A stretch of 64,000 nucleotides of DNA from positions 85,684,001-85,748,000 of the forward strand of contig NC_135806.1 of NCBI RefSeq assembly GCF_964213995.1, in the 5' to 3' direction. The position numbers and the translations under genes are program-made. Positions 11,654-47,185 of this stretch are shown here, piece by piece. This stretch comes from Mustelus asterias. Its lineage: Eukaryota. Within the stretch, counting starts at the first letter, position 1; the number at the start of each line of letters is the position of its first letter. The notes under the pieces were generated by a model. The model searched no databases and was not told the origin of the DNA. It saw only the letters and a program-made list of their open reading frames with translations.

Positions 11654-11892
11654 TGTGGAAATGCCGGCGTTGGACTGGGGTAAACACAGTAAGGAATCTA
11701 ACAACACCAGGTTAAAGGCCAACAGATTTATTTGGTAGCAAACACCACTAGCTTTCGGAGCGCTGCTCCTTCGTCAGATGGAGTGGAATTTCCACTCCAT
11801 CTGACTAAGGAGCAGCGCTCCGAAAGCTAGTGGCGTTTGCTTACCAAATAAACCTGTTGGACTTTAACCTGGTGTTGTTAGACTCCTTACTG
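11654..11892 (-). mobile_element. Penelope-like fold-back insertion (inverted pseudo-LTR pair) with hammerhead motifs
   Basis: Arms of about 103 bp centred near 11789, plus an unpaired extension of about 32 nt; 13-bp TSD TCATTACACAGGA (11641-11653 / 11893-11905); inserted in a CR1. Confidence 0.8.
11746..11782 (-). ncRNA. Minimal type I hammerhead ribozyme motif
   Basis: CCAT-CTGACGA-A-GGAGC-AGC-GCTCC-GAAA-GC-TA-GTGG: intact core, 5-bp helix II, palindromic AGCT in place of helix III. Confidence 0.7.
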
Positions 11893-12692
11893 TCATTACA
11901 CAGGACCAGATCTAGGATAGCTTGCTCCCTCGTAGGTTCCATTACATACTGTTCAAGGAAGCTATTGTGGATACATTCTATGAACTCCTCCTCAAGGCTG
12001 CCTTGGCAGACCTGGTTTGACCAATTGAGATGTAGATTAAAATCCCCCATGATAATTGCTGTACCATTTTTACATGCATCAGTTATTTCTTTGTTTATTT
12101 CTCGCCCCACCATGATGTTACAATTTGGTGGCCTATAGACTACGCCCATCAGTGACTTTTTTTCCTTACTATTTCTAATTTCCACTCAAATGGATTCAAC
12201 CATTTTTTTTCCATAGAACCTATATCATCTCTCACTACCGCCCTGATGTCATCCTTAAATATCAGAGCTACGCCACCTCCCTTACCTTCCTGTCGGTCCC
12301 TCTGAACAGTTTGATACCCCTGGATATTTAACTCCCAGTTATGACCATCCTGCAACTATGTCTCTGTAATGGCCACCAAATCATACATGTTGCAACACTT
12401 TTCAAGAAAGGAAGAAGAGAAAAATCTGGCCAGTTACTCTAACATCAGTTGTTGCTTGAATCTATCATTAAGGAAGTCTTAACAATTTTAGTAAAATTAA
12501 ACACTGTTTGACAAATTTATTAGAGTTTTTTTGATGATATAACTAAGAGGGTAGATAAAGAGGAGCCTATAGATATAATATACCTAGATTTCCAAAAGGC
12601 ATTCGAAGTGCTCATGGAGTTGGGGGTAATATATTAGCATGGATTGAGGATTGATTAACAAATAAAAAGCAGAGAGTGGGCAGCACCTGAAA

Positions 12693-13217
12693 ATGGGTAT
12701 TTCGCAGAAAAACTGCCACAAGCATGCAAGACTGGAAGTAAAAGGAAACCATAATCACAAAAAATAAAGTATGAACTTGGGTGTCCTCTTGCAAATACCA
12801 AGAATGGACCACGCCATATTCACGCAGTGCGAGTCCATGGTGAAAATAAAAAGTATCAAGCACTAAGGTTGGATGCTGGAAACCTCTCCTGGGGTTCTGA
12901 ATGTTGCACACAAGAAACCATGATCATTGATGTGGTGTACAATGCTTCTAACAATGAATTGCTTAGGACAAAGACATTAGTAAAGAACTATGTTGTTGTA
13001 ATCAACAGTACTTCTTTCCGGCAGTGGTATGAGTCTCACTTTGCCCTCCACCTTGTCTGGAAGAAGGGTGCCAAGCTGACCCCTGAAGAGGAAGAAATTC
13101 TGAACAAGAAAAGGTTGAAGAAAATTCAGAAGAAATATTATGATTGGAGAAAGAATGCAAGAATCAGTTCACTGCTAGAAGAATAATTCCAGCAGGATAA
13201 ACTGCTCACTTGCTTAG
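12693..13217 (+). pseudogene. RPS8: RPS8 processed pseudogene, 5' part (ATG to about GKLLAC)
   Basis: Intronless; [21 protein letters not shown]...[22 protein letters not shown]...[16 protein letters not shown]; frameshifts near the start and a premature TAA at 13184-13186. Confidence 0.95.
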
Positions 13218-14684
13218 AACATAAGAAATAGGAGCAGGAGTAGGCCATCTAGCCCCTCGAGCCTGCCCCGCCATTCAATAAGATCATGGCTGATCTGATA
13301 GTGGTTTAGTTCCACTTACCCGCCTGCTCCCCATAACCCTTAATTCCCTTATTGATCAGAAATCTATCTACCTGTGACTTAAACATATTTAATGAGGTAG
13401 CCTCCACTGCTTCAATGGGCAGAGAATTCCAGAGATTCACTACCCTCTGAGAGAAGAAGTTCCTCCTCAACTCTGTCCTAAACTGACTCCTCCTTATGTT
13501 GAGGCTGTGTCCTCTAGTTCTTGTTTCCTTTCTAAGTGGAAAGAATTTCTCTGCCTCTACCCTGTCTAGCCCCTTCATTATCTTATATGTCTCTATAAGA
13601 TCTCCCCTCAGCCTTCTAAACTCCAACGAGTACAGGCCCAATCTACTCAATCTCTCCTCATAAGCTAACCCCCTCATCTCCGGTATCAACCTGGTGAACC
13701 TTCTCTGTACTCCCTCCAAGGCCAATGCATCCTTCCGCAAATAAGGGGATCAAAATTGCACACTGTACTCCAGTTGCGACCTCACCAATACCTTGCACAA
13801 TTGCAGCAAGACCTCCCTGCTTTTATACTCCATCCCCTTCGCGATAAAGGCCAACATTCCATTTGCCTTCTTGATCACCGGCTGCACCTAAACTGAGTTT
13901 CTGCGATTCATGCACAAGCACTCCCAGGTCCCTCTGCACAGTAGCATGTTGTAATTTTTCACCATTTAAATAATAGTCCATTTTACTATTATTCCTTCCA
14001 AAGTGGATAACCTCACACTTGTCAACGTTATACTCCATCTGCCAGATCCTCGCCCACTCACTTAGCCTATCCAAATCTCTCTGCAGACTTTCCGCATCCT
14101 CCATGTAATTCGCTTTCCCACTCATCTTTGTATCATCCGCAACCTTTGTTACCCTACACTCGGTCCCCTCCTCCAGATCGTCTATGTACATGGTAAACAG
14201 TTGAGGCCCCAGCACCGATCCCTGCAGCACGCCACTAGTCACCAACTGCCAACCAGAAAAGCACCCATTTATTCCAACTCTCTGCTTCCTGTTAGATAGC
14301 CAATCCTCAATCCACGCTAACACTTTACCCCCAATTCCGTGTACCCTAATCTTCTGCAGCAACCTTTTGTGAGGCACCTTATCGAATGCCTTCTGGAAAT
14401 CCAAAAACACCATATCCACCGGTTTCCCTCTGTCAACTGCACTCGTTACATCTTCATAAAAATCCAATAAATTCGTCAAACACGACTTTCCCTTCATGAA
14501 TCCATGCTGCGTCTGCTTGATCGAACCATTTTTTTCCAGGTGTCCTGCTATTTCTTCTTTAATGATGGATTCCAGCAATTTCCCAACTACGGACATTAAG
14601 CTAACCGACCTGTAGTTACCCGCCTTTTGTCTACCTCCTTTTTTAAACAGTGGCATCACATTAACTGTTTTCCAATCAGCCGAA
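13216..14684 (-). mobile_element. Young CR1 LINE, 5'-truncated, inserted in the RPS8 pseudogene
   Basis: Long open RT frames (13823-14680 and 13306-13740); TTAG at both junctions. Confidence 0.95.
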
Positions 14685-14812
14685 TTAGCTTCAAGACCTG
14701 CCAGTGTGGATGAGTTGATGGCTGCATCCTTGAAGGAAAGATGTTGGAATTCTACCCAAGGAAAATCAGAGCAAAATAAACACAGTATTTTAAGGAAAAT
14801 GTGATTAATAAA
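14685..14812 (+). pseudogene. RPS8: RPS8 processed pseudogene, 3' part plus short 3' UTR ending at AATAAA
   Basis: Resumes after the CR1 insertion: LASRP/QCG*VDGCILEGKMLEFYPRKIRAK*, matching RPS8 [36 protein letters not shown] at 14807-14812. Confidence 0.9.
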
Positions 14813-17066
14813 CAATTAACAAGGCAAATGACATGATGTCCTTTATTGCAAGGATATTGGATACAGGAGTAAAGAAGTCTTGCTACAATGTACAGGGTTT
14901 TGTTGGTAACTTGTCTGGAATGCTGTGAGCAGTTTTGGTCTCTACATTTAAGAAGGGATTTACTCACGGAGGTGGCATGGAAAAGGTTCAGTAAATTGTT
15001 TCCTGGGATGAGGTCAGATGCTGAGTAAATTGGTCTTATATTCTCTGGTCTGAAGAATGAGAGGTAATCTCTAAAGGAGCTTGATATGGTAGATGCTGAG
15101 ATTGTTTCTGCTGATTGGGGAGTCTGAAACACAGGGGCACAGTCTCAGGATAAGAAACTAATCATTTAGGACCGAAATTAGGAGATATTACTTCACTCAA
15201 AGTTTAATTTTTTTTGTATTTTCTATTCCAGAAAATTGTGGATACGCTATTGTTGAATACATTTAAAGCAAGAATAGACAAATTTTTGATTTCTCAGCGA
15301 ATCAAGGGCTATGGGGAGTGGTCGGTAAAGTGGAATTAAAGCCCATGATTATATTGAATGGTGCAGCAGGCTATATAGTCTACTCCTGCTTCTATTTCTT
15401 ATGTTCTTGTGTAAAAATATGTAGATAAATTAACTGCTGACTGAGATGACTGGTAGATTGAAAAAGATTGTGATATTTTGTTCTATATGTGTCATTATAA
15501 GTAAACTCTTCTAAGATTTAAAAGATAACACAGATTAAAGAGTAAATTGACTAACTCTCCTTCACATTAGAAGAGAATGCAGTCAGAGCAATAGTGCTAT
15601 ATTGTTGCAGCTGTCATCAACTCATGTTTCTTTCTTTCAAGAAAAGTTTCCCACTGAGGAATGGAGCACCCTATATAACCATATAATAATTCTGATGGTC
15701 CATGTTCATTTGGAAGAAAAAAACACATTTTATGTTGGGATGTTGGTCCCTTTAATAAATAGGTTTCTCTAAGAATTGACGTTTTATAAAGCACCTGACT
15801 GTCAGCAAATGATCATGTGACCAAATTGCCCGTGAGATAAATAATAGAAAAGGGTCAGCAATAAATTAAGTACAGGTGTGGATGTAACTCTGGCCTAAAG
15901 CAGGGTTTTTAGTTTTAGAGCAAGGAATAGCGCTTTCCAGCAGAATTCATTTGAAATTAGAACTTGTGTAGAAGGGTCAATGGACCCGAAACCGTGTTTC
16001 TCGCTCCACAGATACTACCAGACCTTCTGAGTTTCTCCAGCACTTTTTTTTTCCAGATTTCCCACATCTGCAGCATTTTATTTCATTTGAAATTAATTGT
16101 GCTGACTAAAATAGTTTAAACCTCTTGTTAACTGCAAGATGCCTAACAATGAGGTAGGTTTCTAGGATAGCCAAGCTGAGGAGAGGGAGAAAAATTCAGA
16201 TGCAAGACTTCAGGGCTAAAGAATATTACAACCAGGAAAATTCTGATCCAAAGTGACTACACTAAGACAACAATGCTGTTTAACTGGCAGTCTATAAATT
16301 CCAGTTGGAGGTGATTTGAAAGGACAACCTTGGTAGAGGTAAGTGGAAGGGCCAAGCAATCTCAACTTTTATATGAAAATCTTTGAAGCAGTGCCCTGAC
16401 CAAACTTTGATATTTGAACTTTGGGAATGTAAAGCAAGTGGATCGAGAAGGAAATTTAAAATAAGTTTGGTTCAAAAAACATTGTACTTTCAATATCTTC
16501 AATGTTACTGATCATTTAAGATAGAGTATAGTTATGAGTATTCATGTTCTTCCACTTTTGTTTCATAAAATTCTTCTGGTTTCAACCATGAACCTTGTGA
16601 CTTTCTTTTAGAAACTACCTGTGTTTTCAGACTCTAAAAATAAATGAACATATTACTGGTTTCTACTGAAATCATAACACAACCTTGCTAAAGAAGGAAT
16701 GTGAAAATTAATCTTACAAAACAGTGAAAAAAATAAGGCAATGCAGGGTTTGGCCTGATGGGTATTCATAAAGGCGCCAGCAAAGTGAAGACACCAGCAA
16801 AGCCTGATGGTTAAAAGAGCTATCTCTATACTGGGCTTGGGACTGTGGGAGCTGCACAGAACAAGATGTGCAAGCATGGAAGTTGATTGGACAGTGGCTA
16901 TTGCTATGCCTTGAACAGTGATTGAACCTAGACTCCTGTGTACCATTTTTCTGAGAGAATTACAATTCCTGACAGAAGCACAACTCTTCAGCATTTGCAA
17001 CCAAAATGTTCTGTGATTACACGACCAGAAACATGATCAGAGCCAGTAATATCTGTATAAGGAGAG

Positions 17067-17317
17067 ACACAGTAAGAAGTCTAACAACACCAAGTTAAAG
17101 TCCAACAGGTTTATTTGGTAGCAAACGCCGCCAGCTTTCGCAGCGTGCTGCTCCTCTGTCAGGTGGAGTGGGATATCAGATCTCCCACTCCACCTGACGA
17201 AGGAGCAGCAAGCTCCGAAAGCTAGTGGCGTTTGCTACCAAATAAACCTGTTGGGCTTTAACCTGTTGTTAGACTTCTTACTGTGTTTACCCCAGTCCAA
17301 CGCCGGCATCTCCACAT
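17067..17317 (+). mobile_element. Penelope-like fold-back insertion, same family as 11654-11892
   Basis: Inverted arms centred near 17178; 3' extension TTACCCCAGTCCAACGCCGGCATCTCCACAT; probable TSD AAGGAGA. Confidence 0.8.
17190..17228 (+). ncRNA. Minimal type I hammerhead ribozyme motif
   Basis: CCAC-CTGACGA-A-GGAGC-AGCAA-GCTCC-GAAA-GC-TA-GTGG; helix I CCAC/GTGG. Confidence 0.7.
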
Positions 17318-19759
17318 TAAGAAGGAGACTCAGACATTAGCAGCAGTAACCTAGGATCAACCACTGCAGAAGAAGCAGCAAGGCCCAAAGTCTGGTATTC
17401 GGAGGCAATGGAACAAAGTCCATCGGGAGGGAGTCTGATCACTTCCCCTCACCACAGGTAGCATCTCTAAGTCCAAGTCGTGAGTTTGGATATTTTGTGA
17501 AGTTTTGATATCTTTTGAATACATTGTGTATAACAAAGTAGACCAGCAGTTAGTTACTTTGTGTATCACGAAATAAAGTCAGAGGTGTATTAGAAAGTTT
17601 CAATCCTGCTGTACTAAAGTTTTGTAGTAGAGTTTGATACTCTAAAGTTTGGTAATTTGGCAGAGTACAATAAAAGAGATTTGTTGTGCAATAATTCAAG
17701 AGTTTGAATGTCTTTGTCCACACCACTGAGTTTTGAGAGCAACAAGTCATTGCAAAATCAAGCAGAGGTCCCAGCAATTTAAGGTCCAATATTTAAACTG
17801 CATTTAATGAATGTGCTATAAAAATATGATTCTTAGCTTTTCATTAAAATATCAGTTATTGACGTTACTGTTGCAGCTTAGCACCTGCCTTAATCATTAA
17901 ATAATTTTCACCAACATGAATTTAACTATATTGCAGAGCAAAATTAAGGATTTTTCTACTGATAGTGTTGCCAGAATTATTTTACATATGATTTAACATT
18001 TAAAAACAAGTTCAAAATGCATACTGTGTAATGGTAGTCTTCCAGTAAAAGAATGTGTGTGGGTAGCATTTGGTGTAGGCACTGTGGTTATAGTGTCAAG
18101 CTTGAATGTAAAGCTCTTCAGAGTTAATGAGATGTATTTTTACATTCTCTGACAAAACCCTTGAATGTGATGACTGGGACTTGCATAGAAATACAGTTTT
18201 ACTGTTTCCTGCTAATGGACAGATGCGCAACAGCCTACAGTAAATGATGTCAGAGAACATTTGAAGTAAACCCTTTGCCCTTGAATGTCATGCAATTCTG
18301 CAGCAATGCTGTTGATTTTTATAGACATTAGAACTTTTAATTCTACACAATTGGTAGAAACCAGGAGGCCAATTCAGGAATAAATGAATCAATGTCAGTG
18401 CTTGCTGGAACAGGATTATAACACCACTTCATGTGTATTTTGCACAACTCTTAACATTTGTTGTGCTTTTTTTTATCCCCATATTTATTTCTCATTGTTC
18501 ATCAGCCAAACACTTCTCCAATTCCCAAAATTCCAGCCCACTAAATTAATAGCTTTTGCAAGGATTAGGTATCTGGCTAAAATCTCACCATTACCTGATC
18601 TAGCAGGGCATATCGGACAGTGGCCTAAGGACACAAACAGTGCCTTCCTTTCACACTTCGAATGCTCTCCTAATCCTCGACCGGGTAGTCTACACTAATT
18701 TTCTCCCCCACTCTTGCCAATCCTCTGTTGCACATTTGAGCGGAAGAGTTTCAGATTGTTATTCAATTATCCTCGCTCAATATCCACATCTGCATTTTCT
18801 ATGAACATCTTCTGGCCAATGATCGGAAATACGAAATCCCGCCAACTTTTACACCCAGACTTGGGTAGCACCTCGATTGTTGCAGCAGCTAAAGCCAACT
18901 ACTTGCCCTCTTTTTAGGTCAAACCAAATAAACAAACTCAGATTTCACACGGAGAATCCCAATTCTGCACGGATCCGAACCTGACCTTCACCACCTATCA
19001 CAAATTAGCACCCAGCCCCGATTCCAAAAGGCGCAGCTAGTCGCAGCTTTGATCGTCATTTATATAAACGCATCTATGATGCCCCGAAATAGATCGAGGA
19101 CCCTGGATAACGACTAGCAAGCACATTTTTAAAGAAAAATTAACCTTGTGTTTTAAAACCTCTAATGACTTGAAGTTTTTTGCTTCAAGTTAGACTTTTA
19201 AATCTCTGGAAGTTTTAAATAGGATAACAATGCTTTCACATCGTATACAGTACTGGTCCCAAAGCCTATCTCGTTTCTTGTACAACTTTGTTATTTTTAA
19301 CTAATTGATGTCGTACGAAACAGTAATATCACATTGAAAAGTGTTGCAATATTTATATATGGACTGCAAGCAAATCTGATAATGGATTTGTGATAAATAG
19401 CCAATAAATTAACTATTTATTCAGCCAACCGAGGTTTCGAGTGCTCCGTTGACAGATAATGTCTTCATATCAAAACCACTCTTTAAATATTAATCTGTAA
19501 TACTTCAGTACAACTCTCGACTTCTCATTCGTTTTGCCTTTCAAAACTGAAGATCTATCTCCCAAATTAGTGAACCAAGACCAGGATTTGGCACGGTTTT
19601 TAATTTTAATCGGAGGTTTAAATAAAAGAGCAGAAGATTGGCATATTTCTAGCACTGTTGGTACCTGCCCTGCAAACAGCCTGGGATTGCAAGTGTTGCT
19701 TGCAGCGACTGGTCGGATTGACATGTGCTGATCTAAAGTGGAATGAGCTGCAGACGTAC

Positions 19760-19866
19760 CGTCCTAGTTCCGATTCAATATCATAGAAATCTTCCAGGGC
19801 GTCCTTCTTGTTGGAGCCATCGATCCAGTAACCACAGTTCGATGTCGATCGGGCAACTTTCATCAT
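19760..19866 (-). CDS. CAMK4: CAMK4 (Ca2+/calmodulin-dependent protein kinase IV) first coding exon
   Basis: MMKVARSTSNCGYWIDGSNKKDALEDFYDIESELGR matches recalled human YWIDGSNRDALSDFFEVESELGR; phase-2 donor CG|GTACGT; WDR36-CAMK4 order and strand as in human; exon 2 not found in the window. Confidence 0.95.
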
Positions 19867-20461
19867 CCTGGCCGACGGCTGGAATGCACTCTCCAGTGAA
19901 GGCGAGAAGCTGCCGGCAGCGGCAGCAGCAACACAATCCCCAGTCCCCGCCTGTCTACCTCAGTAATCTGCAGCAAGCTGCACTCCCTCAATCATAGCAA
20001 CACAAGAGTGGGGGAGAGCGAGTCCATACGCCCACTGAATGCAAATCTGAACTTCCTTTTCTGTTCTTGAAGTTCCTTTGATTTTTTTAAAAAAAACAAC
20101 GCAAACTCGACAAAAATAATTACTAAAAAGCGGTAAGAAAAGGATGCACAAACTTATTGGGGCTGGAGCTCTGAACGTGCGCCACCGGCCCCTCTCGGGT
20201 TAACTTGCACACTGACGCCTGTCAGTCGAATAACCGCCATACCGTAATGCGGCGAGAAGACGCGCAATTTTACCGCGTTGTTTGTACGTCTCGCCCCGAC
20301 AATTCTTTTGGTGGGAGGAGGAGGTTGAATAAGTTGGCCCTCGCACCTGCTAGGTCGGTGGGGCGGAACAGGGTGTTATTTTTACAAGTTGAGAGGGGGC
20401 CGTTTCGAGCTGCGCTGCCCGTCGAGGGACTTGCCAGTGCGCGCGCGGCTAACGGTCAAGT

Positions 20462-20481
20462 GTTCGAGAATGTTCGAGAGG
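20462..20481. promoter_or_regulatory. Heat-shock element gTTCg-aGAAt-gTTCg-aGAGg
   Basis: Three perfect alternating nGAAn pentamers plus a fourth with one mismatch. Confidence 0.55.
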
Positions 20482-20659
20482 CGCGGGCGGTCCCGTCACG
20501 GACAAGTGCCGGCCCCGCTCCACGTTACCGGCTTCCCGGAGAGGTGTTCAACCTAAAACCCGAATTGTTGTTCTTGTCTTCAATATCATACAAAATACTG
20601 CGTTACCATTCGACTGGTTTGAATCGTTTTCTAAGACCAGTACCCGACATTAAAGCACG

Positions 20660-20784
20660 ATGTGGAGATGCCGGCGTTGGACAGGGGTGGGCACAGTAAG
20701 AAGTCTCACAATACCGGGTTAAAGTTCAACAGGTTTATTTGGAATCACGAGCTTTCGGAGCGCTGCTCCTTCATCAGGTGAGTG
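20660..20784 (-). mobile_element. Penelope-like 3' end (single arm) at the edge of the CAMK4 CpG island
   Basis: Same terminal sequence as the fold-back copies; no inverted partner. Confidence 0.8.
20745..20781 (-). ncRNA. Minimal type I hammerhead ribozyme motif
   Basis: TCAC-CTGATGA-A-GGAGC-AGC-GCTCC-GAAA-GC-TC-GTGA; helix I TCAC/GTGA, C at the cleavage position. Confidence 0.72.
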
Positions 20785-20958
20785 ACATAAAGCAGCAAAA
20801 AGATGCCATTCTGCCCATCCTGCCTCTGCAGCTGTTCTAAAGAATCTAATTCCCCTGCACTTACCACCACCCCCACCCCCCCCCCCCCAGCCGCAAATAA
20901 ACATCGAATTTCGTTTTGAAAGTTACTATTTAACTTGCTTCTGCCACCCTTTTCAGGT

Positions 20959-21865
20959 ATGATGGAATCTGTGATTTAAAGGCATTACATTTTTGAGGTG
21001 GACCTTAATTGAAAAGGACTGAGAAAATAGCGGACCCTTGCAATTGCTATGGAAACTAAATCTGAAAATGAGATTGGAAGCCACAACTCCTGGTTATATA
21101 AAAGAACACACAACCATCAAAGCTCAGTTAATTCCAGTGGTGCAGTACAAACAGGCTGTAGAAGATAGATTCAGAAGCTGTGAATTAGCAAAGATATAGT
21201 TGCTACCACTGTTTCTGTTACTTAAATGTTATATTGGTAGGTCTGCACTATCCAGACTGAGTTGAGAAGGTTCTGCAGACTTTTTTTAGAAGCTTATTTA
21301 TTAGTCACAAGTATTACTTGCATTAACACTGCAATGAAGTTACTGTGAAATTCCCCTAGTCACCACAGTCTGGCACCTGTTGGGGTCAATGCATATAACC
21401 AGTATGTCTTTCAGAATGTGGGAAGAAACTGGATCTCCTGGAGGATTCGATTCTGGCCTTGGGTGAATGTGTAGGGTTTGCACACTCTCCCCTGTCTGCT
21501 TGGATTTCCCTCTGGGTGGTCCAGTTTCCTCCCACAGTCCAAAGATGTGCAGGTTAGGTGAATTGACTAAATTGCCCTCTAGTGTTCAAAAATGTGTACG
21601 TTAGGTGGATTAGCTGTGGGGAATGTGCAGGGATAGGACGGGGGGATTGTGCCTGAGTAAGATGTTCTTTTGGAGAGTCGGTGCAGACTTGATGGGCCAA
21701 ATGGCCTCCTTCTGCACTGTAGGAGATTGATGGTTTTGTGATTCTGTGCAAGTGTTTGCTTTGTTTGACTCTTGTATAATAATTCTTTTGTTTAAACCAT
21801 GGAATCTTGTGGCTTCATTCTTTCTCTCAAAAATAATTTATTGGTCTCTAACCAAGATTGTAACA
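20959..21865 (+). mobile_element. Possible solo LTR inserted in a CR1 fragment
   Basis: Interrupts collinear CR1 sequence (TTTCAGG | GTGCTTTGCAGATC); TATATAAAA near 21095; ends GATTGTAACA; a similar end ATCATAACA at 16679 suggests another at about 15408-16679; no clear TSD. Confidence 0.35.
21290..21732. mobile_element. Two truncated V-SINEs fused back to back
   Basis: Minus-strand variant 21290-21445 joined to a plus-strand HE1-like copy starting at its B box (21446). Confidence 0.7.
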
Positions 21866-24240: not shown

Positions 24241-24733
24241 CTTCAGCACTTTTCCTTGGAGCAGAGGAAACTTTGAAGGGGGACATGACTGAGATGCACA
24301 AAATTATGAGGAGCATAGATAGTGGATGGGAAGAAGCTTTCTCCTTGGTGGAAGGATCAATGACTAGGGGGCATAGATTTAAAATAAGGTGCAGAAGGTT
24401 TAGAGGGGATGTGAGGAAATGATTTTTCACCCAAAGGATGATGGGTGTCTGGAACTCATTGCCTGTAAGGCAGACACCCTCGTAACATTTTAGATGTACA
24501 GATGCGATGCCAAGGCATACAAGACTATGGACCAAGTGCTGGAAAATGGGTTTAGAATAGTTAGGTGGTTTGTCTTTGGCTCAGACATGTTTGGCCGAAG
24601 GCCTTTTTTTTCTCTGCTGTATACCTCTGAATCTATAAAGCAAATAACAATGCTTTGTACTTCCCAGTAATTAATTGAAGAGCACTTTCTGCTCCTCTAG
24701 TACTAGATATTAGATAAGTAGCCTGAAAACACA

Positions 24734-25885: not shown

Positions 25886-25899
25886 TGCATGCAGTGGTA

Positions 25900-35010: not shown

Positions 35011-35384
35011 AAATCTTCCACAGAACCATCTTCTGTTTGAAAGTTTCTCAGTTTGTAAGCTCTTATAAATTTATCTGAAAGTTCTGTTTTTATCTTGGAG
35101 TGTTTTATTAGTATAGTTACTTTCAAATTAACATCTTAAACCTAAGAATTACAGTAAAACATCCCTTTTGAAGTACGCTAAAAACAGATACCACCAAGTT
35201 TAATCCATTCCACCAAAATCAATTTAAAGATGCAAATAGGTAAAAACAAAAACGGTGTGAGGAAATAAAGTAATTTGATTCTATGAAATGTACATTCTTA
35301 ATGCAAAGACTTCAGGTGTGTACTATTTCAACTAGCTACAAAAAGTAAAGTACAAGATATTAAATTGTATATTCTACAAAATAG

Positions 35385-35390
35385 TTTATT
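35385..35390 (-). terminator. Candidate WDR36 polyadenylation signal AATAAA (alternative at 35104-35109)
   Basis: TTTATT on the + strand about 390 nt past the stop, in AT-rich non-repetitive 3' UTR-like sequence. Confidence 0.5.
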
Positions 35391-35780
35391 TGTATCATAC
35401 AGATGGTACAATTGCAAAATAAAACCATTTCTATTTACAGTGATGTAAACCGAGGTAAATCGGAGAGCCAGCATGAATAAAGAACATGATCCACAACAAT
35501 GTTTTTCTAACAGGTTCTGAGCCATTTTCTCTTTTACATTCAACCTATTACAGGCGTACTCAAATGTACCATCAGTATGACATTCCTTTTAAGAAATTAA
35601 ACTCAACAGAAAACTTGAAAATAAAGGAATTAACCCTAAAATGTAATTTCCATCCATGACAAAGCATACACTCAGTCTATAATGTAACATAAAAAGTAGC
35701 ACAATGACTTATTGGGTGAATTAAGTTATCCAGTCTATTTAGAGTGTACACTGAATCACTGGACAATACTAGATTTCAGC

Positions 35781-35930
35781 TTACAATAAAGCACTCTTCA
35801 TGTATCCCAGCAGGCACATGCTTTGGTTGAAAAGTAACTGCATACGTGTCCATGTTTCTTCTAGCAACACTGATATTTTAGACATTTCTTCTAAGAGCAC
35901 TGGTTCAACAGCAATAATCTTGAGATGGAG
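35781..35930 (-). CDS. WDR36: WDR36 terminal coding exon, LHLKIIAVEPVLLEEM...LFNQSMCLLGYMKSALL*
   Basis: CAG acceptor, 49 codons plus TAA; C-terminus matches recalled human LFNQSMCILNYLKSALL; preceded by a 16.5-kb repeat-filled intron. Confidence 0.96.
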   Translation of the reverse strand, partial: LHLKIIAVEPVLLEEMSKISVLLEETWTRMQLLFNQSMCLLGYMKSALL

Positions 35931-36709
35931 CTGCAGGGTGTAGGGAGAATGGCAGAGGAGAAAAGAAAACATGTTAACAGATTTGTAAAACGGGAAAGAC
36001 TTTTTGACCCAGCACAATGTATGACACTTAGAAATACCTAAGTTCTTACTGTTTGAATTCAAAGGAATGACAATTATTAAGAATGGAATGTATTTTTCTT
36101 TAGTAACCACATAATTATTAAGCATATAAGTAGCTACAACATAAAAATGGAAGATCAGCTTTATTGCAAAATACAATTGTAACAATGAAGCAAACTAAAA
36201 TGCAGTATGAGGAAAGCAGCTAATGAGACAGCTCCCTACTTCCCTTCCCAAAAAGTCCTTTTTTTAAATTTGAAAAATACCAACATTGCCACTTATTTTA
36301 ATACTAAACTAATAGGATGAGATGGTTTCCTTCACTAGTTTTAAATGCGGTAGATGAGATAACTGTAAACGTCCTAGTTCTAATTCAACAAAATTTGCTG
36401 ATTCAGGGACTGTTCCTTCAGCTCGGATGGTTGCACTTCAATCCATTAGGAAAAAATAATGAGGGAATTGTAGATTAGTTAGCCCAATATCCATTTTCAG
36501 AAATTAGCAGAGTCTATAATTAAGGATGATTGAACACCTTGAAATCTTTCCACAGATCAGAGACAGTCAGCCTGGACTTCTGGTACATTATATCTGACGA
36601 TCCTGATTTAAATGTTTTGAAGAGGTTACTATAGAGGAGGATTTTATTTATTTGTATTTCTAGAAAGCATTTAAATCCAGAATAAGAGATTGGAAGTTCA
36701 CAGAATCAC

Positions 36710-37013
36710 TCAGCTAATGTCCTGGGGACGCAGGTTTGAATCCTGCTACGGCAGATGGTGGAATTTGAATTTAATTTTTAAAAAATCTGGAATTAAGAAT
36801 CTATTGATGGCCATGAAACCATTGTCGATTGTCAGAAAAACCCATCTGGTTCACTAATGTCCTTTAGGGAAGGAAATCTGCTGTCCTTACCTGGTCTGGC
36901 CTGCATGTGTTCCAGAGCCACAGCAATGTGGTTGCCTAGTTGCATCCCTGGGCAACTAGGGATGGGCAATAAATGCTCGTCAACCTGCGACTTCATATCC
37001 CATGAATGAATTA
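36710..37013 (+). mobile_element. tRNA-derived SINE with the tail GGGATGGGCAATAAATG
   Basis: B-box-like GGTTTGAATCC; tail resembles that of the LINE fragment at 38710-39145. Confidence 0.6.
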
Positions 37014-37687
37014 ACAGAATTGTTACATAACAGGCCACACGACCTGTTGTGTCTGTGCCAGCTCTTCGAAGGAATGATTTACATAGTGCCACTTGCCGCC
37101 TTCTCCCTGTAGCCTTGCAAGTTCTTTCTTTTAAGATAATAATCCAATTCCTTCTCGAATGCCTTGATTGAACCTGTCTCCAACACACACTTTGGCAATG
37201 TATTCCAGATACCAATCATTCACTACTTCAAAAAGATTGACCTCATGTCACCATTGCTTCTTTCGCCAATTACCTTAAATCTGTCTCCTCTTGTTCACAA
37301 TTCTTCCACCAATAGAACAGTTTTTCCCCATCTGTCCAGATTCCTCATAATTTTCAATGCCTCTATCAAATATCCTCTCAACCTTTTGTTCTCAACCTCA
37401 ACAGTTTCAACCTCTCCAATTTATCTACGTAATTGAGGTTCCTCATCCCTGGAACCATTCTTGTGAATCTTTTCTGCACTCTCTCTAATGCCTTCACATC
37501 CTTCTAGTGCCTAGAACTGGGCACAGTACTACAGCTGAGGCCGAACCAGTGCTGTACAAGTTTAATACAACTTCCTTGCTTTTATGCACTTATGCACTTG
37601 GTAATAAAGTCTAGGATGCTGTATGCGTTATTAATCATTCTCTCTCAACCTGTCCCGTCACCTTCAATGATTTATACATATTATAAC

Positions 37688-37986
37688 AGAATCCCAACAG
37701 TACAAAAGGAGGCCATTCAGCATATCAAGTTTGCACCGTTCCTTTGAAAGAGCACTCTAACTAGGCCCGCTCCCCCACACCATAACCCCACACATTGATC
37801 ATGGCTAACCCACTTAACCTGCACATTTTTGGACTGTGGGAGGAAACCAGAGCACCCAGAGGAAACCCATGCAGATGCAAAGAGAACGTGCAGACTTCAC
37901 ACAAACAGCCACCCATGGCCGGAATTAAACCCAGGTCCCTGGTGTTGTGAGGTAGCAGTACTAACTACTGTGCCACCGTGCCGCAC
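37688..37986 (-). mobile_element. HE1-like V-SINE
   Basis: Family sequence; inserted in a CR1. Confidence 0.85.
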
Positions 37987-40417
37987 CCTTTATTGTACAT
38001 GTTTTTTGTATATTAAATTGAATCTGTCACTTGCCCACCCATTCCACCAACCTATATCCTTTTGAAGTTCTGCACTATTCCCCTCATAGTTCATAATGTT
38101 TCCAAGTTTTCTATCACCGACAAATTTCAAAATTGTGCTCTGTACAAAGGTCTAGGCCATTAATATACATGAGGAAGAACAGCGTGCTAACACTGGCCTC
38201 TAGAGAACTTCATTACAAACCTTCCTCCAGTCCAAAACCATCTATTAACTACTACTCTTATGTTTCCTGTCACTCAGCCAATTTTGGGTACACATTGCTA
38301 GTGTCCCTCTTATTCCATGAGTTATAACATTTCTCACATGTCTATTGTGTGACACTTTTAGAAGTCCACATATATGTCAACAGAATTATCTTCGTCTACA
38401 CTCCATTACCTCATCAAAAAACTCAACTAGGTTAGTTAAACACTATTTGCCCCAAACTAATCCAAATGGGTATGCTTCTGCTAACCTACATTTGCCCAAG
38501 GCAAATTAGTTTTGACCTAAATGATTGTTTCTAGAAGTTTCCCCACCATTAAAGTTAAACTGACTGATCGGTAATTGCTGGGCTCATTTTTACACACTTT
38601 TTTTGAATAACGTGTGACATTACAAATCAAATCAAATTTGCAGGTTCTCCAGTTGTCTGGCACCACCCGATTCTAAGGAAGACTGTGCCTCCTCAGTTTT
38701 CACACACACTTGCTGGAATGAGTGCAGCTCCAAAAACACAAGATAATCAACACCATCAGGACAAAGTAGCCCACTGATAGCTACCTCTTCCAAAAACACT
38801 TAATCCCTCCACCAACGGTGAATAGTGGCAACTGTGTTAGGCAGCACTTTCTAAACCCACAACCACTACATATAGAACAAGAACAGCAGATACATGGGAG
38901 CATCATCACCTGAAGGTTCCCCTCCAAGTCACTAGCCATCCTGCCTTGCAGATATATTGCTGTTCCTTCACTGTCGCTGGGTCAAAAACCCTGGAATACC
39001 CTCCCTAACAGCACTGTGGGTGTACTTACACCTCAGAGACTGCAACAGTTCAAGAAGGCAGCTCACCATCACCTTCTGAAGGGCAACTGCGGCTGGGCAA
39101 TAAAGGCTGGCCAGTGATGCGCACATCCCATAATGAATAAAAAATAAACTTACCTCAGTATCCTTGGATATATGTCATCTTATTAAATCTAAGTAGTGAC
39201 AGCCTATCTAATACCGCATTTCAATTTCAAACCCTTCAAGTGTCTGAATGACCCCTCCTCTCACCATGACCTACACAGCATCTTGTTCCTTGGCATAGAC
39301 AATTAATAGCAACTGCCCCTCCCACCCGCCATCCTCGATGCTTAAATCCCCTTTTTGGTCCTTCCTTTTATCAATCTTTTATTATTTATATGGCTATAGA
39401 AGGCTTTGGGATTCCCTTTGATGTTAGCTACCAGGCTCTTCTTATACTCTGTCATTGCTTTTCCTATTTGCTTTTTCACTTCCCCTCTGAACCTTCTATA
39501 TACATCCATACATTATATTCAGTTTGGTTTTTGGTTGTATTATCCATCTGACATCTTGTCACAAACACACTTTTTCTCCATCTTAATCTCTATCTCTTCC
39601 ACAGAGACATAGAAAAAAGGAGCAGAAGGAGGCCATTTGGCCCTTCAAGCCTGCTTTGCCATTCATTATGATCATTGCTGATCATCCATCATCCAGGCCC
39701 AGGGAGCTCTGAATTTTTTTGCCCTACCTCTCCCCTTCATGGAAATATACCTAGACTCTGCCCAACTTTCTCTTCAATTACTGTTTTGTCTGCTGACCTT
39801 TCATTCCAATTTATCTGATCCAGATTAATTCTTATCCCACTTAAGGTGGCTTTCCTCCAGTGAATTATTCTTAGTCTGGATTGTTTTTCTTTTCTTTTTC
39901 CATTGCAAGCCTTATGATACAATGATCATTGTTCTCGAAATGCTCTCATACTCAAAAACCTGACCCCTTGGCCCACCGCATCCCTAAGAACCCAAGTTCA
40001 ACAGTGTCTCCTTTCCCATTGAACTGGAAACATACAGCTGTAGAAAATGTTTCTGATCACACTCTAGGAATTCTTGCCCTTCACTGCTCTTTATGCTATG
40101 CTTTTATTACCCCAATCTATATCTGAATAATTAAAAAGCCCCATTATAACTACACTACAATGCTTGCATTCTCTGTAATTTCCTTGCAGATTTGTTCCCC
40201 TACATCCTTTCCATTAGTTGGTAGCTTATAGATTACACTGAGCAATGTAACTGCACCATTATTGTTCCTTAGCTCCAGCCAGATAGATTCTGTCCTTGAT
40301 CCCTCTGGGGCATCCTCTCTCTCCTGCACTACAATATCCTCCTTAATCAACACTGCTGCCACTCCCACTCCTCTCCCTTTCCTATCTTTCCTGAACATCC
40401 TTATATTATTTCATCCT

Positions 40418-40888
40418 TATGAAAGAGGAATACCAGGGTGCATAGATTATTGGGAGAGGCAGATAGCAATAGAGTAGGAAATATTAAATTATTAGGTGGG
40501 TTCAGAGTAAGGGATAACGTAATAATGTCTAAATTAGGGTTAATGTGTCACAACACCAGGTTAAAGTCCAACAGTTTATTTGGAATCAGAAGCTTTAGGA
40601 GTGCTGCTCCTTCATCAGGCGATGGCACAGATTGGCATATTTAATATGCAGTCCTGCCTTTCAGTCATGTATGTTATAGCCACAGCATCATATCTTCACA
40701 TAGCAATCTGTGCCAGTAACTCAGTCTTATTTACCATACTCCATATATCCACATATGTGCACATTAACCCTAATTTAGACATTATTATGTACCGCTTTCT
40801 CTGAACCTACCTAATAATTTAATATTTCCTACTCTAGTGCTATCTGCCTCTCCCAGTAATCTATGCACCTTGGTATTCCTCTTTCATA
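40418..40888. repeat. Unclassified element with 130-bp inverted repeats enclosing a Penelope-like fragment
   Basis: 40418-40547 is the reverse complement of 40760-40888 with roughly ten differences; Penelope end fragment at 40548-40619. Confidence 0.8.
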
Positions 40889-42351
40889 TGACCTCCTTGT
40901 TCCCACAACCCTGCCCTTATGTTTAAATCCTCCCCAATAGCACGAGCAAATCATCTCTCAAGGAAATCAGTCCCGTTTCTGTCTGTTTACATGCAACCAG
41001 TCAGACCTTTACAGATCCCAGAGCTGGAAAAAATGACCCAGGAATCTAAAACCTTCCTTCCTGCACCATCTTTCCAACCATGCATTCTACTTATCTGCAT
41101 GTGGAACTAGATATAATCCAGAAATGACCACTTTTGAGGTCCATTTTGCAAATTCTTTACCTAGCTCTCACATTCCTCTTTTTGTCTGTCTTTGGAACCA
41201 ATGTGGACCATGACCACTGGCTTTTCACCCTCCCCCCATAGTGCTTTGCAATCTATGACATCCTTGACCCTGACACCAGGGAGGCAGCACAGCATCCTGA
41301 TTCAGCCGTGGTGCCATGGACTTGGCTCTGACTGCACTCCCCAGATGAACCGCCAATTTCATCAGTATTCAAAACTGAATACCGGTTGGAGAGCGAAATG
41401 CTCCCAGGGGACTCCTGCACTACATGCCTATTTTTCTTGACTTTCTGGTGGTCACACATACCCATTGTCCTTGCATATTCTTAAACTGCAGGGTGATGTC
41501 GTCTATAAACATGCTTTCCATAAAGTTCTCATCCTTACCGATGCACCGCAATGAAGCCAGCTGCTGTTCAAGCTCTGAAACCCAGAGCTCAAGCTACTGC
41601 AACTTACTACACTTCCTGCACATATGGTTAACCAGGGCATCTGCAGAATCTTGGAATTGAAGGCACGTTATTGACCCAGCTAAGAAACTGATTAAATAGT
41701 AGGAAACAGGCAGTAGGGTTTTACTAGTGGTGTCCCACAGGGATCTTTCTTAGGGCCTCAACTAGTCACCATATTTATTGACAACTTGGATGATAGAAAA
41801 GAAAACCATATATTAAGTTTTCCAATGATACAAAGATAAGCAGCATTGTAAGTAGTATTGCTGAAAGCAAAAATAAAATACAACATACTAATAAATTAAG
41901 TGAATGGGCAAAACTAATGGGCAAATAACTTTCAAAATAGCCAAATGTGAAGTCATCTACTTTGGACCTGAAAGGGATAGATCAGAATACTCTCTAAATG
42001 ATGAAAAGCTGGAAACAGCAATGCTCCAAATAGCTTTTTGGGCCTATAGATCATTAAAATGTCATGGACAAGAACAGAAAACAATCAAAAAATCTCATGG
42101 AACGCTGGTCTTTATGTCTAGACAATCAAAATACAAGAGAATATGTTTTAGGCTACAGCAATACAAAGTCAAAGTGAAATACTACCTAGAGAATAGACTG
42201 GCCTTGGTGGAAGTGCAGTGTATATTTACCAGAATAATAACTGGAGTCCAAGGATTAAATTACGAGAAGAGATTACATGAACAAGAGCTGTATTCCCCAT
42301 TCAGTCTGGAAGGTTGTGAAGTGTATTTTCTATTCAGTCCATAGGTATGAC

Positions 42352-43167
42352 CTCAAACTTCCCCAATCATTTTAATTCTTCACCTTGCGCTTACATTGAA
42401 CTCTGTCCTTGGTCTCCTACACTGCTGCAATGAAGCTCAACATACACTTGAGGAACAACACCTCATCTTTCAATTAGGAACATGACAGCTTGTGGACTCT
42501 GAGTTCAACAGTTTCAGACCACTAACTCGTAGAATCATAGAAACCCTACAGTGCAGAAAGAGGCCATTTGGCCCATCGAGTCTGCACCAACCACAATCCC
42601 ACCCAGGCCCCACCCCACATATTTACCCGCTAATCCCTCTAACCTACGTATCTCAGGACACTAAGGGGCAATTTTTAGCATGGCCAATCAACCTAACCCG
42701 CACATCTTTGGACTATGGGAGGAAACCGGAGCACACGGAGGAAACCCAGGCAGACACGAGGAGAATGTGCGAACTCCATACAGACAGTGACCCAAGCCAG
42801 GAATCGAACCCAGGTCCCTGGAGCTGTGAAGCAGCAGTGCTAACCACTGTGCTACCGTACCGCCCGTTTCCCCAAAAACTCTTTCCCTGTTTTGTTTCTT
42901 TTGCTTGTTTTGTCTTTTTTTCATCTAATTTCTATTTTTAGTCAGTCGCACACCAGCTCTTTCACTTTTTTGCTTATTTTGTTGATCAACCTCTATTTCC
43001 TTTGGCCTTGAAAGACTTCTGACCTCTTCTGTCATTCATTCAATCTCTCATCTTTCAACCTATCATCGGCCTTCCTTTTGTCCTAGGCTCAGCCAACCTT
43101 TGTGGAAAACTTAGTACATTTATAACTTTTCCCAATTCTGACGAAAGGTCACAGAGCTGAAACATCA
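42352..43167 (+). mobile_element. Penelope-like element 3' fragment (second family), split by a SINE
   Basis: Degenerate HFNS...SVLGLLHCCNEAQHTLEEQHLIFQLGT C-terminus; terminal CTGACGA-AAGGTC-ACA-GAGCT-GAAAC motif at 43138-43163. Confidence 0.7.
42530..42866 (-). mobile_element. HE1-like V-SINE
   Basis: Very similar to the 929-1272 copy; inserted in a Penelope fragment. Confidence 0.88.
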
Positions 43168-46100
43168 GATGGGATTTTCTGGCCCCAACACCTGCCAGCA
43201 TCATTGTGGGCAGAACAAGAAAATTCAGAGAGCTGTTAAAGTCAATATCTCTCCGTACAGGAATTGATTCATATGTGAATTGAAAAAAAAATAAGAGAAG
43301 CAAAGAAAGAGTTGCCAACATTAAAGGAAATCCGAAGGTCTTCTCGGCATATGAATTGTAAAGAGTGGGAAAAGGACTAATGGGGCCAATTGGGGGCTTA
43401 AAAGGGGATTTATGCATGGAGGCAGAAGGCATGGTTGAGGTGCTAAATGAGAATTTTCCATCTGTATGTACCAAGGAAGATGCTGCCCATGTCATGTGAA
43501 ATACAACGACCTTAAAATATTTGATGGTTAAAAATTGACCAAAAGTTGGCATTGAATAAACTGACTGGGCCAGAGTCAGACGAAATGCATTCAAGGACAC
43601 AGACGGAATGAAGGATGGAAACTGCAGAGGTACAGGCCATAATTTTCCAGTCTTCCTTACACTGAGAGATGCCAGAGGACTGGAGAATTGCAAATGTTAT
43701 AATCTTGTTCAGAAAAAGGTGTAAAGATAAGCCCAGTAACTAGAGGCCTGTCACTTAAACCTTGGTGGTAGGGAAGTTTTTAAGAAGCGATAATTCAGTA
43801 CAAAATTAACGGTCACTTCAGCAAATGTGGGTTAGTTAAGGAAAGTCTGCATGGATCTGTTAAGGGTAAATGATGATTAACTAACTTGCTTGAGTTTTTT
43901 GATGCGATAAGAGAGGGGTTGGATAAGGATAATGCAGTCGATGTGGTGCACATGGCCTTCCTAAAGGTGTTTGATTAAGTGCCACAAGGCAGAATAGTGG
44001 TGAATAGTTGCTTTTCAGACTGGAGGAAGGTTTACAGTGGTGTTCCGCAGGGGCCGGTGTTAGGACCACTGCTCTTCATGATACGTATTAATCACCTAGA
44101 GGGCGAGGGCACGATTTCAAAATAGGATGCTACAAAAAATGGACAGAGCATTGAACAGGAATTATTGGAGCTTATAACAAAGGAACTGTAATAATTGTGT
44201 GGGACTTTAATCTTCATATAGGCTGGGTTAATCAAATTTGCAAGGGTGGTCTGGAAGATGAGTTTATAAAATGTTTCTGTGACAGTTTCTTGGAGCAATA
44301 TGCTGTGTATGTGACTGCGGATAAAGCTATCTTAAATTCAGTATTGTGTAATGAAGCAAGGTTTTGTAGTAATGTCACAGTAAAAGATCCACTATGCACA
44401 AAATCATAATACCATAATAACATGAATTCCATGTTAAATTTGAAAGTGATAAACTCCCATCACAACCAAGAATCTTAAAACTTAAACAAAGCAAATTACA
44501 TAGGCATGATGGGAGAACAGGCTAAAGTTGGTTGGGTAAATAGACTTAAAAGGTATGGAGATAAATGAACAGTCGGAAACCTTCAAGTAAACAATTCAAA
44601 ATGTTCAACAAAATACATTGCCTTGAAAAAAAGTCCATAAGAAAGACCCATCTGTGGCTTACAGAAGTATTTATGGATAGTATTCAATTAAAAGAGATTT
44701 ACCATGTTGCAAAAAACAGTTGCAAGCTTGAGAAGTGGGTGTTTTAGAAGCCAGTAAAGGGCCCAAGAAGTTGATTAAAAAAATGAGAAAATATAATGAG
44801 AGTAAACTAGCTGGAAACACAAGAGATTGCAAGAATTTTGTTTACTGAATAAAAAAGGAAGGCAGTAGCTAAAGTAAATGTTGGACCTTTAGAAGCAAAG
44901 GCTGGATAAATTATCACTAGGGAACAAGGAAATGACAGAGGCATTGAATAAATATTGTGTGTCTGTCTTCACAGTAGAAGACACAAGTTTCATACCAGAA
45001 ATAGACTGTAACCTAGGGGCTAAAAAGAGTGAGGAAATTAAGGAAATTAAAACCAGTAGAGAAAAATAATTGGATGAAATTGAGCGACTAAAATCTGACA
45101 ACTCCCTGAGACCTGATAGTTTACGCCCTAGGATTCTGAAAGACATAGCTACAGAGATAATGATAAGCTAGCTATTATTTCCAAAATTCCTTAGATTCAG
45201 GAAAGGTCTCACTAGACTGGAAATTGGCAAATGTCACACTGCTTTTCACAAGCGGGGACGGGGCAACAAGTCAGTTAGTTTAATATCAGTTGTTGGGAAA
45301 ATGCTGGAATGTATTATTCAGGAAGTCTTAACAATGCACTTAGAAAAGTCAACATGGTTTTCCTAAAGGGAAGTCCTGTTTGGCAACTTGAGTTTTTTTG
45401 AGCATGTATCAATTAGGATAAATTTAGGGGACAAAGTAGATGTAATATACCTAGATTTCAAAAGGCACTAATTAAGATGCCACTCAAAAGATTAATAGGC
45501 AACATTAGGAGTTGGGGGTAATATATTAGCATGGATGGAGGATTAGTTAACGGAAAGCAGAGTGTGGCATGAACTGAGCTTTTTAAATTGGCAAGCAGTG
45601 AATAGAGGAGTGCCTCAAGGATAAGTGCTGGGACATCAGCTATTTACAATCTATATTAATGACTTATTGAAGAAATAGAGAATAAAGTATCTAATTTTGC
45701 TGATGATACGTCAAGGTAGCTGGAAAGATAAGCTGTAGAGCTGTCACAGAAGGCTGCAAGCAGATATACACAGGTTAAGTGAGAGGACAACAAGATGGCA
45801 GAAGGAGCATTATGTAGGGAAGTGTGAGGTTATTCACTTTGATAGTAAAAATAGAAAAGCAGAATATTTTTTAAAAGGTGTAAAACTTGTAAATGTTAAT
45901 GGTCATTGTGCATGCTCATACAAAGAATACAGAAAGCTGGCATGCAAATTCAACAAGCAATTGAGGCGGCAAACAGCAAAGTTGGCCTTTATCATAAGGG
46001 GATTGGAGCACAATAATGAATAAGTCTTGCTACAATTGCACAAAGTTTTGATGAGACCAAATGTGGAATAATGTGTGCAGTTTTGGCTTTTATATTTAAG

Positions 46101-46693
46101 AAAGGATATACTTGCATTGGAAGCATTGCACCTAAGATTCACTAAATTGGACCCTGGGGTGAAACGTTGTCCTATGATGAGAGGCTGAGTAAATTGGGCT
46201 CATATTTGCTGGGGTTTAGAAGGATTAGAACAGACCTCAATGAAAGCTACAACAATCTGAAGGAGCTGAGATGAGGAACTTCCAGTTACATAGTGAGACT
46301 GAAGAAGCTGGGACTGTATTCCTTGAAGAAAGTTGAGGAGATTTGGCAGAGGTATTCAAAATCATAAATACCTCTGGACAGAGTAAATGAGAGAAATTGT
46401 TCTTATTGGTGGAAGGATTGAGAATCAGAGGACCAATTCAAGGTGATTGGCAAAAGCACCAATGGTGCATGAGGAAAAACTTATTTATGAAGCAAGTGGT
46501 TCAAATATAGAATATACTGTCTCAATATGTGGTGCAAACAGATTCAATTGTGGTTTTCAAGAGAGTTAAGGGTTTGGCTAAGAACAGTCAATGACACAAT
46601 ACACAGATTTTTATTTTAAAATCATGTTTACAAAAATGTGCATTAATTAGTCCTCAGGTGAAATCCATGTGGCATTGCATAGTCGATAGTCAT

Positions 46694-47185
46694 GATGTGG
46701 AGATGCCGGCATTGTAGGCACAGTAAGTCGTCTCACAACACCAGGCTAAAGTCCAACAGGTTTATTTGGTAGCACAAGCTTTCGGAGTGCTGCTCCTTCA
46801 TCAGGTGAGTAAAGAGTTGGGTTCACAAACAGGGTACATATAGGCACAGACTCAATTTACAAGATAATGGTTGGAATGTGAGTCTTAACAGGCAATCAGG
46901 TCTTTACCTGAGCTGGGCTTGCAAAATCTCACTAACTGTCCTGGTTTGAGACAATTTACACCTCTGTAACCTGTGCTTAACCCTCTCTCCACATCTGTAC
47001 CTGTAAAGACCTGATTACCTATTAAGACTCGCATTCCAACCATTATCTTGTAAATTGAGTCTGTGCCTATATGTCCCGTTTGTGAACCCAACTCTTCACT
47101 CACCTGAAGGAGGAGCAGCGCACCGAAAGCTTGTGCTACCAAACAAACCTGTTGGACTTTAACCTGGAGTTGTGAGACTTCTACT
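46694..47185 (+). mobile_element. Penelope-like insertion with inverted pseudo-LTRs of about 190 bp and a spacer of about 95 bp
   Basis: Arms about 46720-46907 and 47003-47185; hammerhead motifs at 46772-46808 (-) and 47100-47136 (+, core mutated); TSD ATAGTCGATAGTCAT / ATAGTTGATAGTGAT; orientation call is tentative. Confidence 0.8.

Follow-up and report, generated by a model that had tools for sequence, protein, structure and literature searches.

Insertions in the CAMK4-WDR36 region

The window analyzed here, a 64,000-nucleotide stretch of contig NC_135806.1 of the shark Mustelus asterias, carries parts of two host genes on the minus strand, CAMK4 and WDR36, and five insertions of one Penelope-like element (PLE) with a minimal hammerhead ribozyme. 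These insertions are quite probably 5'-truncated ends of the element, generated by priming from both strands of a staggered cut, and the hammerhead would serve the RNA of the element and not the host introns.

The five insertions were located at the positions (11654, 17067, 20660, 40548 and 46694) where a preliminary description had placed a shared hammerhead motif. They belong to one family as proposed, but a self-search of the window identified eight arms of one repeat rather than five motifs, and the core is intact in four of the eight. Three insertions are head-to-head pairs (11654-11893, 17067-17317 and 46695-47184) and two are single arms (20660-20786 and 40546-40620). Two types of arm were distinguished by where they end relative to the ATG of the element, tailed arms between -3 and +10 and tailless arms between -38 and -30; on the whole, tailed arms stop at the ATG and tailless ones 33-38 nt before it. 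The arms and the host exons are as follows.

11654..11785, minus strand: tailed arm of pair 1, in CAMK4 intron 1; minimal hammerhead at 11777-11749 intact, sense to the pre-mRNA
11786..11893, plus strand: tailless arm of pair 1; core disrupted at G8 (11801)
17067..17186, minus strand: tailless arm of pair 2, in CAMK4 intron 1; hammerhead decayed
17186..17317, plus strand: tailed arm of pair 2; hammerhead at 17194-17224 intact, antisense to CAMK4
19762..19866, minus strand: first coding exon of the host gene CAMK4, with more exons up to about 85 kb left of the window
20660..20786, minus strand: single tailed arm, intergenic, upstream of CAMK4; hammerhead at 20777-20749 intact
35781..54651, minus strand: 3' exons of WDR36, with pieces of the Utp21 domain at 54304-54651, 53705-53935, 52387-52644 and 35781-36194
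40546..40620, minus strand: single tailless fragment, in the last WDR36 intron; G12 broken (40618) and helix I absent
46695..46915, minus strand: tailed arm of pair 3, in the last WDR36 intron, extending to 231 nt upstream of the ATG of the element; core at 46804-46776 intact, sense to the pre-mRNA; inner end approximate
46920..47184, plus strand: tailless and longer arm of pair 3, extending to 327 nt upstream of the ATG; core broken at A9 (47104); inner end approximate

The proposed spread through both genes was confirmed for four insertions, which are intronic (11654 and 17067 in intron 1 of CAMK4, 40548 and 46694 in the last intron of WDR36), but the arm at 20660 is intergenic, located upstream of CAMK4, some 0.8 kb from the start codon, and outside the coding spans of both genes (untranslated regions were not mapped). 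This solo copy borders a G+C-rich stretch upstream of CAMK4 and is oriented to the gene; a transcript initiating within it would run into the CAMK4 5' region.

Pair 1 is bordered by a target duplication of 13 bp as judged by eye (the script scored a 9-bp core) and pair 3 by one of 12 bp with one mismatch, while that of pair 2 has decayed to 7 bp, under the threshold. The fragment at 40548 is flanked by a 128-bp inverted duplication (40418-40545 and 40762-40888, 93% complementary). Checked as a second repeat family, this duplication was not found elsewhere in 1.41 Mb, and it may represent host DNA duplicated at insertion.

Identity of the element

Longer copies of the repeat extend upstream into an open reading frame (ORF) with a reverse transcriptase (RT), a CX4CXXC linker located directly before the endonuclease domain, and a GIY-YIG domain. 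In the fetched examples the unit is 3,097 bp long and its single ORF encodes 893 amino acids. Pfam detected RVT_1 in this protein (E 4.3e-10); the GIY-YIG match was weak, with E 0.023 on a fragment and no listing for the whole protein, though its motifs and the CCHH residues are visible. The Atlas neighbours of the protein carry both RVT_1 and GIY-YIG (0.97-0.98), and a sequence search of the PDB gave no match at E 0.01. One fetched locus (L177) contains two full units 3,097 bp apart that are 99.97% identical, and the arrangement of ORF between two pseudo-long terminal repeats (pLTRs) was observed in L177, L182-L187 and L178-180. The assignment to a Penelope-like family therefore stands, with an RT plus GIY-YIG ORF and tandem pLTRs. 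Judged from these sequence features, the element is an endonuclease-bearing (EN+) PLE with a linker of the Neptune/Nematis type, and by this linker a putative member of these clades.

Within the unit, the ATG follows C3 of the hammerhead by 130 nt and the cleavage base by 100 nt. Tailed arms sometimes extend up to 10 nt beyond the ATG (L054:5430-5500 and L185:2170-2190), and one variant of the junction between pLTR and ORF is present in 603 exact copies genome-wide. Contigs from four other organisms span the whole element, mostly with 90-99% identity, and the family is therefore common to related species; the RNA origin of these contigs is a guess, and ends, strand and editing cannot be read from them.

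Abundance and age of the family

The abundance was estimated by sampling the 26 large contigs of the 3.68-Gb genome at round coordinates, in 110 stretches of 10 kb each (about 1.1 Mb). The sample contained 132 arms, of which 77 span the hammerhead and 49 are intact, in agreement with the abundance claimed beforehand. Extrapolated genome-wide, this corresponds to about 440,000 arms (95% range 341,000-542,000) and about 164,000 intact hammerhead motifs (95% range 117,000-214,000). The family makes up 3.8 +/- 0.7% of the sampled DNA. Since a profile of the element end gave 142 matches in 1.21 Mb against 0 in the reversed sequence, the repeat matches are not due to chance.

In a protein search, 104 scored matches were stop-free within the matched part, many of them in 913-codon open frames, and ten intact ORFs differ from one another by 0-9 of 2,682 nt. 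Between the arms of a pair, the median identity is 95% and the highest 100% (33 pairs; 15 of 48 pairs with less than 60 aligned bases are omitted). The family is thus very abundant and very recently active. Recent mobility applies to the family as a whole but not to the copies in the window, whose arm pairs, with 90-94% arm-to-arm identity, are among the older ones.

Structure, covariation and decay of the hammerhead

The motif, with only a palindromic stub of helix III, shows the published features of the minimal type I hammerhead (PMC4209133), as had been proposed. Over 95 arms, the core is unchanged in 66 and the GC loop is present in 91; an A is inserted as extra base behind A9 in 88, and T (42), A (30), C (21) and G (2) occur at the cleavage position. 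In the window, the palindromic AGCT is present, and the cleavage base in the four intact copies is A, A, C and T. The intact hammerhead of pair 3 (46804-46776) has a helix I of 3 bp and a helix II of 4 bp. An Rfam scan of the window gave no match to a hammerhead covariance model at E up to 1, as would be expected for a motif without helix III.

Covariation was assessed with 41 distinct copies selected for an intact core. Paired bases occupied 91% of the cells, against 30-47% in slid controls, and five of the ten pairs of helices I and II showed two-sided change, although relatedness among copies inflates both these counts and the shuffle test. The clearest two-sided change was found at the innermost pair of helix I (C-G in 28, U-A in 8). 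The helix I variants cited in the preliminary description, CCAC/GTGG at 17190 and TCAC/GTGA at 20745, are indeed present, but the pair cited is the weakest one, being unpaired in 13 of the 41 copies.

Excess conservation of the core over its flanks, in contrast, was not observed. After insertion, 18 of 900 non-CpG core sites (2.0%) and 57 of 2,744 flank sites (2.1%) had changed (P 1.0), and G12, a CpG site, was altered in 13 of 100 arms. The inserted motifs decay neutrally and without any signal of selection. Because core and flanks change at the same rate, the structure appears to be maintained among the master elements and not among the inserted copies.

Geometry of the insertions

Among neighbouring arms less than 300 bp apart, 37 of 41 are arranged minus-then-plus, with the 3' ends outward. 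When minus-then-plus pairs within 2.5 kb were examined, 52 of the 55 consisted of one tailed and one tailless arm, three had no tail, and none had two. Target duplications, mostly of 12-14 bp, border 37 of 48 pairs, compared with 0 of 139 shuffled flank pairs. The longer arm is the tailless one in 17 pairs and the tailed one in 8, the arms being approximately equal in 19 (44 pairs; of the remaining four, three were unmapped and one is tailless on both arms). Long insertions share the same end types.

From this pattern we infer that both nicked strands prime cDNA synthesis at two fixed sites on the RNA, in agreement with the in vitro behaviour of an element from Anolis (PMC11167929). The endonuclease would nick the two strands 12-14 bp apart, and each 3' end would prime cDNA at one of the two fixed RNA sites; both cDNAs would then stop, or run off the 5' end of the RNA, and be joined after the gain of a few untemplated bases. 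That every inverted insertion arises through one protein dimer priming both nicked strands, with dozens of them copied from hammerhead-cut RNA, seems to us slightly better than an even proposition. If the dimer reading is true, two-strand priming at two fixed RNA sites explains both the inverted pLTR and the one-sided tail.

The published view of PLEs attributes the inverted shape to self-priming or to endonuclease resolution (PMC3846280, PMC8557442). Accordingly, the inverted arm might be made by self-priming, through fold-back or on an antisense template (PMC3846280), with the tail removed at one end during resolution (PMC8557442). The nearly equal arms of 19 of the 44 pairs and the location of many junctions on short palindromes fit such a process. 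In 17 of the 25 unequal pairs, however, the tail is on the shorter arm and missing from the longer one, and a single fold-back of the first cDNA cannot explain a tailless arm that is so often the longer. In one locus (L188), a tailed arm of 197 bp stands opposite a tailless arm of 3 kb without any internal tail. Furthermore, the two arms of a pair may stop at one and the same base, separated by just two untemplated bases, and the tail ends correspond to the two RT start sites identified in vitro for the Anolis element (PMC11167929). We regard self-priming as rather unlikely. One point that counts against two-strand priming is that asymmetric deletion within an initially perfect palindrome could lengthen either arm.

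The inverted ends, the target duplications and the lack of coding capacity in the window copies also resemble miniature inverted-repeat DNA transposons or tandem non-LTR retrozymes, yet the arms are unequal, range from less than 100 bp to more than 2 kb, and align with the end of a unit that encodes RT, leaving this reading with almost no probability. It is refuted by a continuous size series up to full-length elements. As to the non-LTR retrozyme, the window contains no tandem array of short units, and an intact motif has a same-strand neighbour within 5 kb in 6 of 62 cases.

5' ends of the arms and the cut site

The positions at which the arms begin were mapped in the sample (67 arms exceeding the profile length are omitted). 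Of 76 mapped 5' ends, 21 fall 33-40 nt before the cut site, that is, within 8 of 123 positions, for which 4.9 were expected (P 1e-8). Most window arms start near this upstream cluster, including the solo copy at 20660, whose 5' end lies 36 nt before the cut site. The cluster coincides with an initiator-like word, and 52 of 61 long arms also carry a TATA-like word some 30 nt further upstream, both words being judged by the promoter consensus. It likely represents the transcription start, and the templates of these arms would be uncleaved. At L177:5780-5830, a TATA-like word likewise precedes, by about 30 nt, an initiator-like word located at the 5' strand of helix I; this is a candidate promoter, and its predicted transcript would start with the ribozyme.

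Arms starting at the cut site were sought genome-wide in the youngest subfamily, with an exact pattern that requires both arms to start on the base following the scissile bond and 2-8 other bases to separate them. At 46 loci, the two arms start right at the predicted bond and are separated by untemplated bases. Control positions of the same design gave 0 (4 nt upstream), 1 (4 nt downstream) and 6 (15 nt downstream), the two downstream patterns admitting more subfamilies than the cut-site pattern. The ten cut-site loci that were fetched have differing flanks and are separate insertions. Judging from these junctions, the cut-site ends probably record ribozyme cleavage in vivo; such insertions would derive from templates that the ribozyme had cut beforehand and that make up a minority.

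Several observations weigh against this interpretation. The signal is clear in the youngest subfamily only, a second subfamily giving 4 matches (two of which are palindrome joins) against 0 in the control, and a third giving 1 with a narrower pattern and without a control. The control positions number only three. Within a 12-nt window, the total of junctions is 769 at the cut site and 711 at 13 nt downstream, where the pattern admits more subfamilies, and the histogram of 5' ends contains alignment artefacts near -13 and 0. The youngest subfamily carries U at position 17, forming a CUU triplet, which is a poor cleavage site. For the Anolis element, no RNA reads that end at the cleavage site were detected (PMC11167929). 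Finally, at 59 of the 92 ends the cDNA gains a C as its first added base (counted by hand over the 46 loci), as copying of a cap would give, so that a transcription start at the cut-site base is possible.

The alternative that the cut-site junctions reflect a second transcription start, or stalling of RT at the three-way junction, instead of cleavage draws on this C, on the pyrimidine-purine step at the site, on the weakness of the signal in the other two subfamilies and on the lack of such reads in Anolis. On the other side, the ends map precisely to the base that follows H17. A stall caused by helix I would be expected at the outer end of this helix, and the control there gave 1. The TATA-like word precedes the upstream cluster and not the cut site. 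In the upstream cluster, too, a G stands before 10 of 21 ends (hand count), and the addition of C may thus be a general habit of the enzyme. A second start or a stall is in our estimate the less likely explanation, though one of some weight, and cleavage of the element RNA is preferred.

Effect on host RNA

The preliminary description proposed that working self-cleaving motifs are scattered into host introns. Two intact motifs, at 11777 and 46804, are indeed intronic and sense to the pre-mRNA, and several points favour an effect of such copies on CAMK4 or WDR36 RNA: 23 of 62 intact motifs are outside inverted pairs, the approximately 164,000 intact motifs genome-wide could permit dimers in trans, and the protein of the Anolis element aids cleavage (PMC11167929). 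The two sense motifs, however, both belong to pairs, as do 39 of the 62 intact motifs. Because the 3' ends of paired arms point outward, transcription of either strand passes through the antisense arm first and reaches the sense ribozyme afterwards. The predicted hairpins of the two intronic pairs reach -217 and -351 kcal/mol, and the predicted probability that their motifs pair with a distant partner averages 0.69 and 0.85, against 0.11 for the solo copy. The antisense arm, being transcribed first, is thus predicted to silence the sense ribozyme within pairs.

The predicted AGCU duplex amounts to only -2.5 kcal/mol. Minimum-energy folds of homodimers gave no dimeric hammerhead, but the method does not model that form and the outcome carries no weight. 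In published experiments, monomers were without cleavage and dimers cleaved poorly (PMC4209133), and a partner on the same strand within 5 kb is present for only the 6 of 62 intact motifs noted above. The core is, moreover, neither over-conserved nor over-lost after insertion. Intronic arms number nine in CAMK4 and four in WDR36, too small a set for judging strand bias. A search for RNA data sets covering window 46200-47700 listed none. Given the antisense-first order, the predicted distant pairing and the inactivity of published monomers, cleavage of CAMK4 or WDR36 pre-mRNA appears unlikely by these models, and we consider self-cleavage of inserted copies in host introns improbable; neutral decay of the core, trapping of the sense motifs in hairpins and the scarcity of partners all speak against the original proposal. 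The copies look like neutral passengers for CAMK4 and WDR36. The long hairpins of paired arms could instead be substrates for editing.

Other features of the window

In CAMK4 intron 1, an intronless match to ribosomal protein S8e (12755-13186, plus strand; Pfam E 6.4e-24) is likely, from its sequence, a processed RPS8 pseudogene. A 238-codon open frame at 8013-8729 (plus strand) has no Pfam match; diverged copies (65-77%) at three other places of the sample indicate that it belongs to a repeat. At 49845-50290 and 91-316, two 218-nt copies, 228 nt apart and 99% identical, were found at the end of a fragment resembling a long interspersed nuclear element (LINE), with RT-like frames.

Implications

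These observations are of value for the insertion rule, which rests on counts, and for the footprint at the cut site. How PLEs, the sister group of telomerase, integrate is constrained by the rule of one tail per pair and by the fixed stagger of 12-14 bp. Arms starting just past the scissile bond provide a cheap genomic read-out of cleavage, and dozens of insertions copied from cut RNA, if the reading is true, would be genomic evidence for cleavage by a minimal hammerhead in a living animal. The family is large, with about 4% of the sampled DNA and likely more than 100,000 intact motifs, and the genome would then represent a large natural record of Penelope transposition. The active 893-amino-acid element makes two-strand priming and cleavage directly testable.

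Comparison with known elements

Published descriptions already exist for the class, as the preliminary description stated, and for its minimal hammerhead, inverted pLTR and tail. Literature on this family, on twin priming by PLEs or on genomic ends located at the cut site was not found in a search that did not cover subscription papers, Repbase or Dfam.

Minimal type I hammerheads of metazoan PLEs were described by Cervera and De la Pena in 2014 (PMC4209133), who state that in vivo evidence is absent. The motif described here agrees with theirs in the core, in the extra base between 9 and 10.1 (A in 88 of 95), in the G10.1-C11.1 pair, in the palindromic 15.2-16.2 region (GC loop in 91 of 95), in the short helix I, in its location in the pLTR, and in its occurrence as dispersed singles and opposite-strand pairs. 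Helix II is 5-6 bp here, unlike the 7-8 bp of the Schistosoma families, and the approximately 164,000 intact motifs extrapolated here compare with about 9,000 in Xenopus and about 4,000 in coelacanth, obtained by another counting method. Cartilaginous fish are not named in the portions available.

Partial tandems, head-to-head inverted pLTRs, a 30-40-bp tail at one end only and a short target duplication are shared with Pen2a_Av (PMC3846280) and with the elements of Craig et al. (PMC8557442, bioRxiv 2021.04.23.441226). In comparison, the rule was counted here on 55 pairs, with a tight size of 12-14 bp for the duplication; the tail stops at the ATG, whereas in those elements it stops inside the ORF. 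The C-terminal GIY-YIG domain with CCHH and the CX4CXXC linker are as in the Neptune/Nematis PLEs, following the linker definition of Craig et al.; as against these PLEs, no microsatellite bias was evident on an informal look at the listed target duplications.

The protein of Poseidon, a predicted dimer, cuts both strands in vitro and extends them from two start sites on the RNA (Frangieh et al. 2024, PMC11167929), with later integration steps left open there. PAc of Anolis carolinensis resembles the present element in that two RT start sites define the tail and a minimal hammerhead is located in the pLTR. It differs in that its ORF starts inside the hammerhead and its start sites are 111-118 nt into the ORF, while the hammerhead here is located 100-130 nt before the ATG; PAc also belongs to the Penelope/Poseidon clade, the element described here carrying a CX2-5CXXC linker. 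Non-LTR retrozymes (bioRxiv 10.64898/2026.07.22.740005) share the type I hammerhead, are derived from PLE pLTRs and are reported in one cartilaginous fish. In contrast to the tandem short units of these retrozymes, the copies in M. asterias are single or head-to-head truncated ends of the element.

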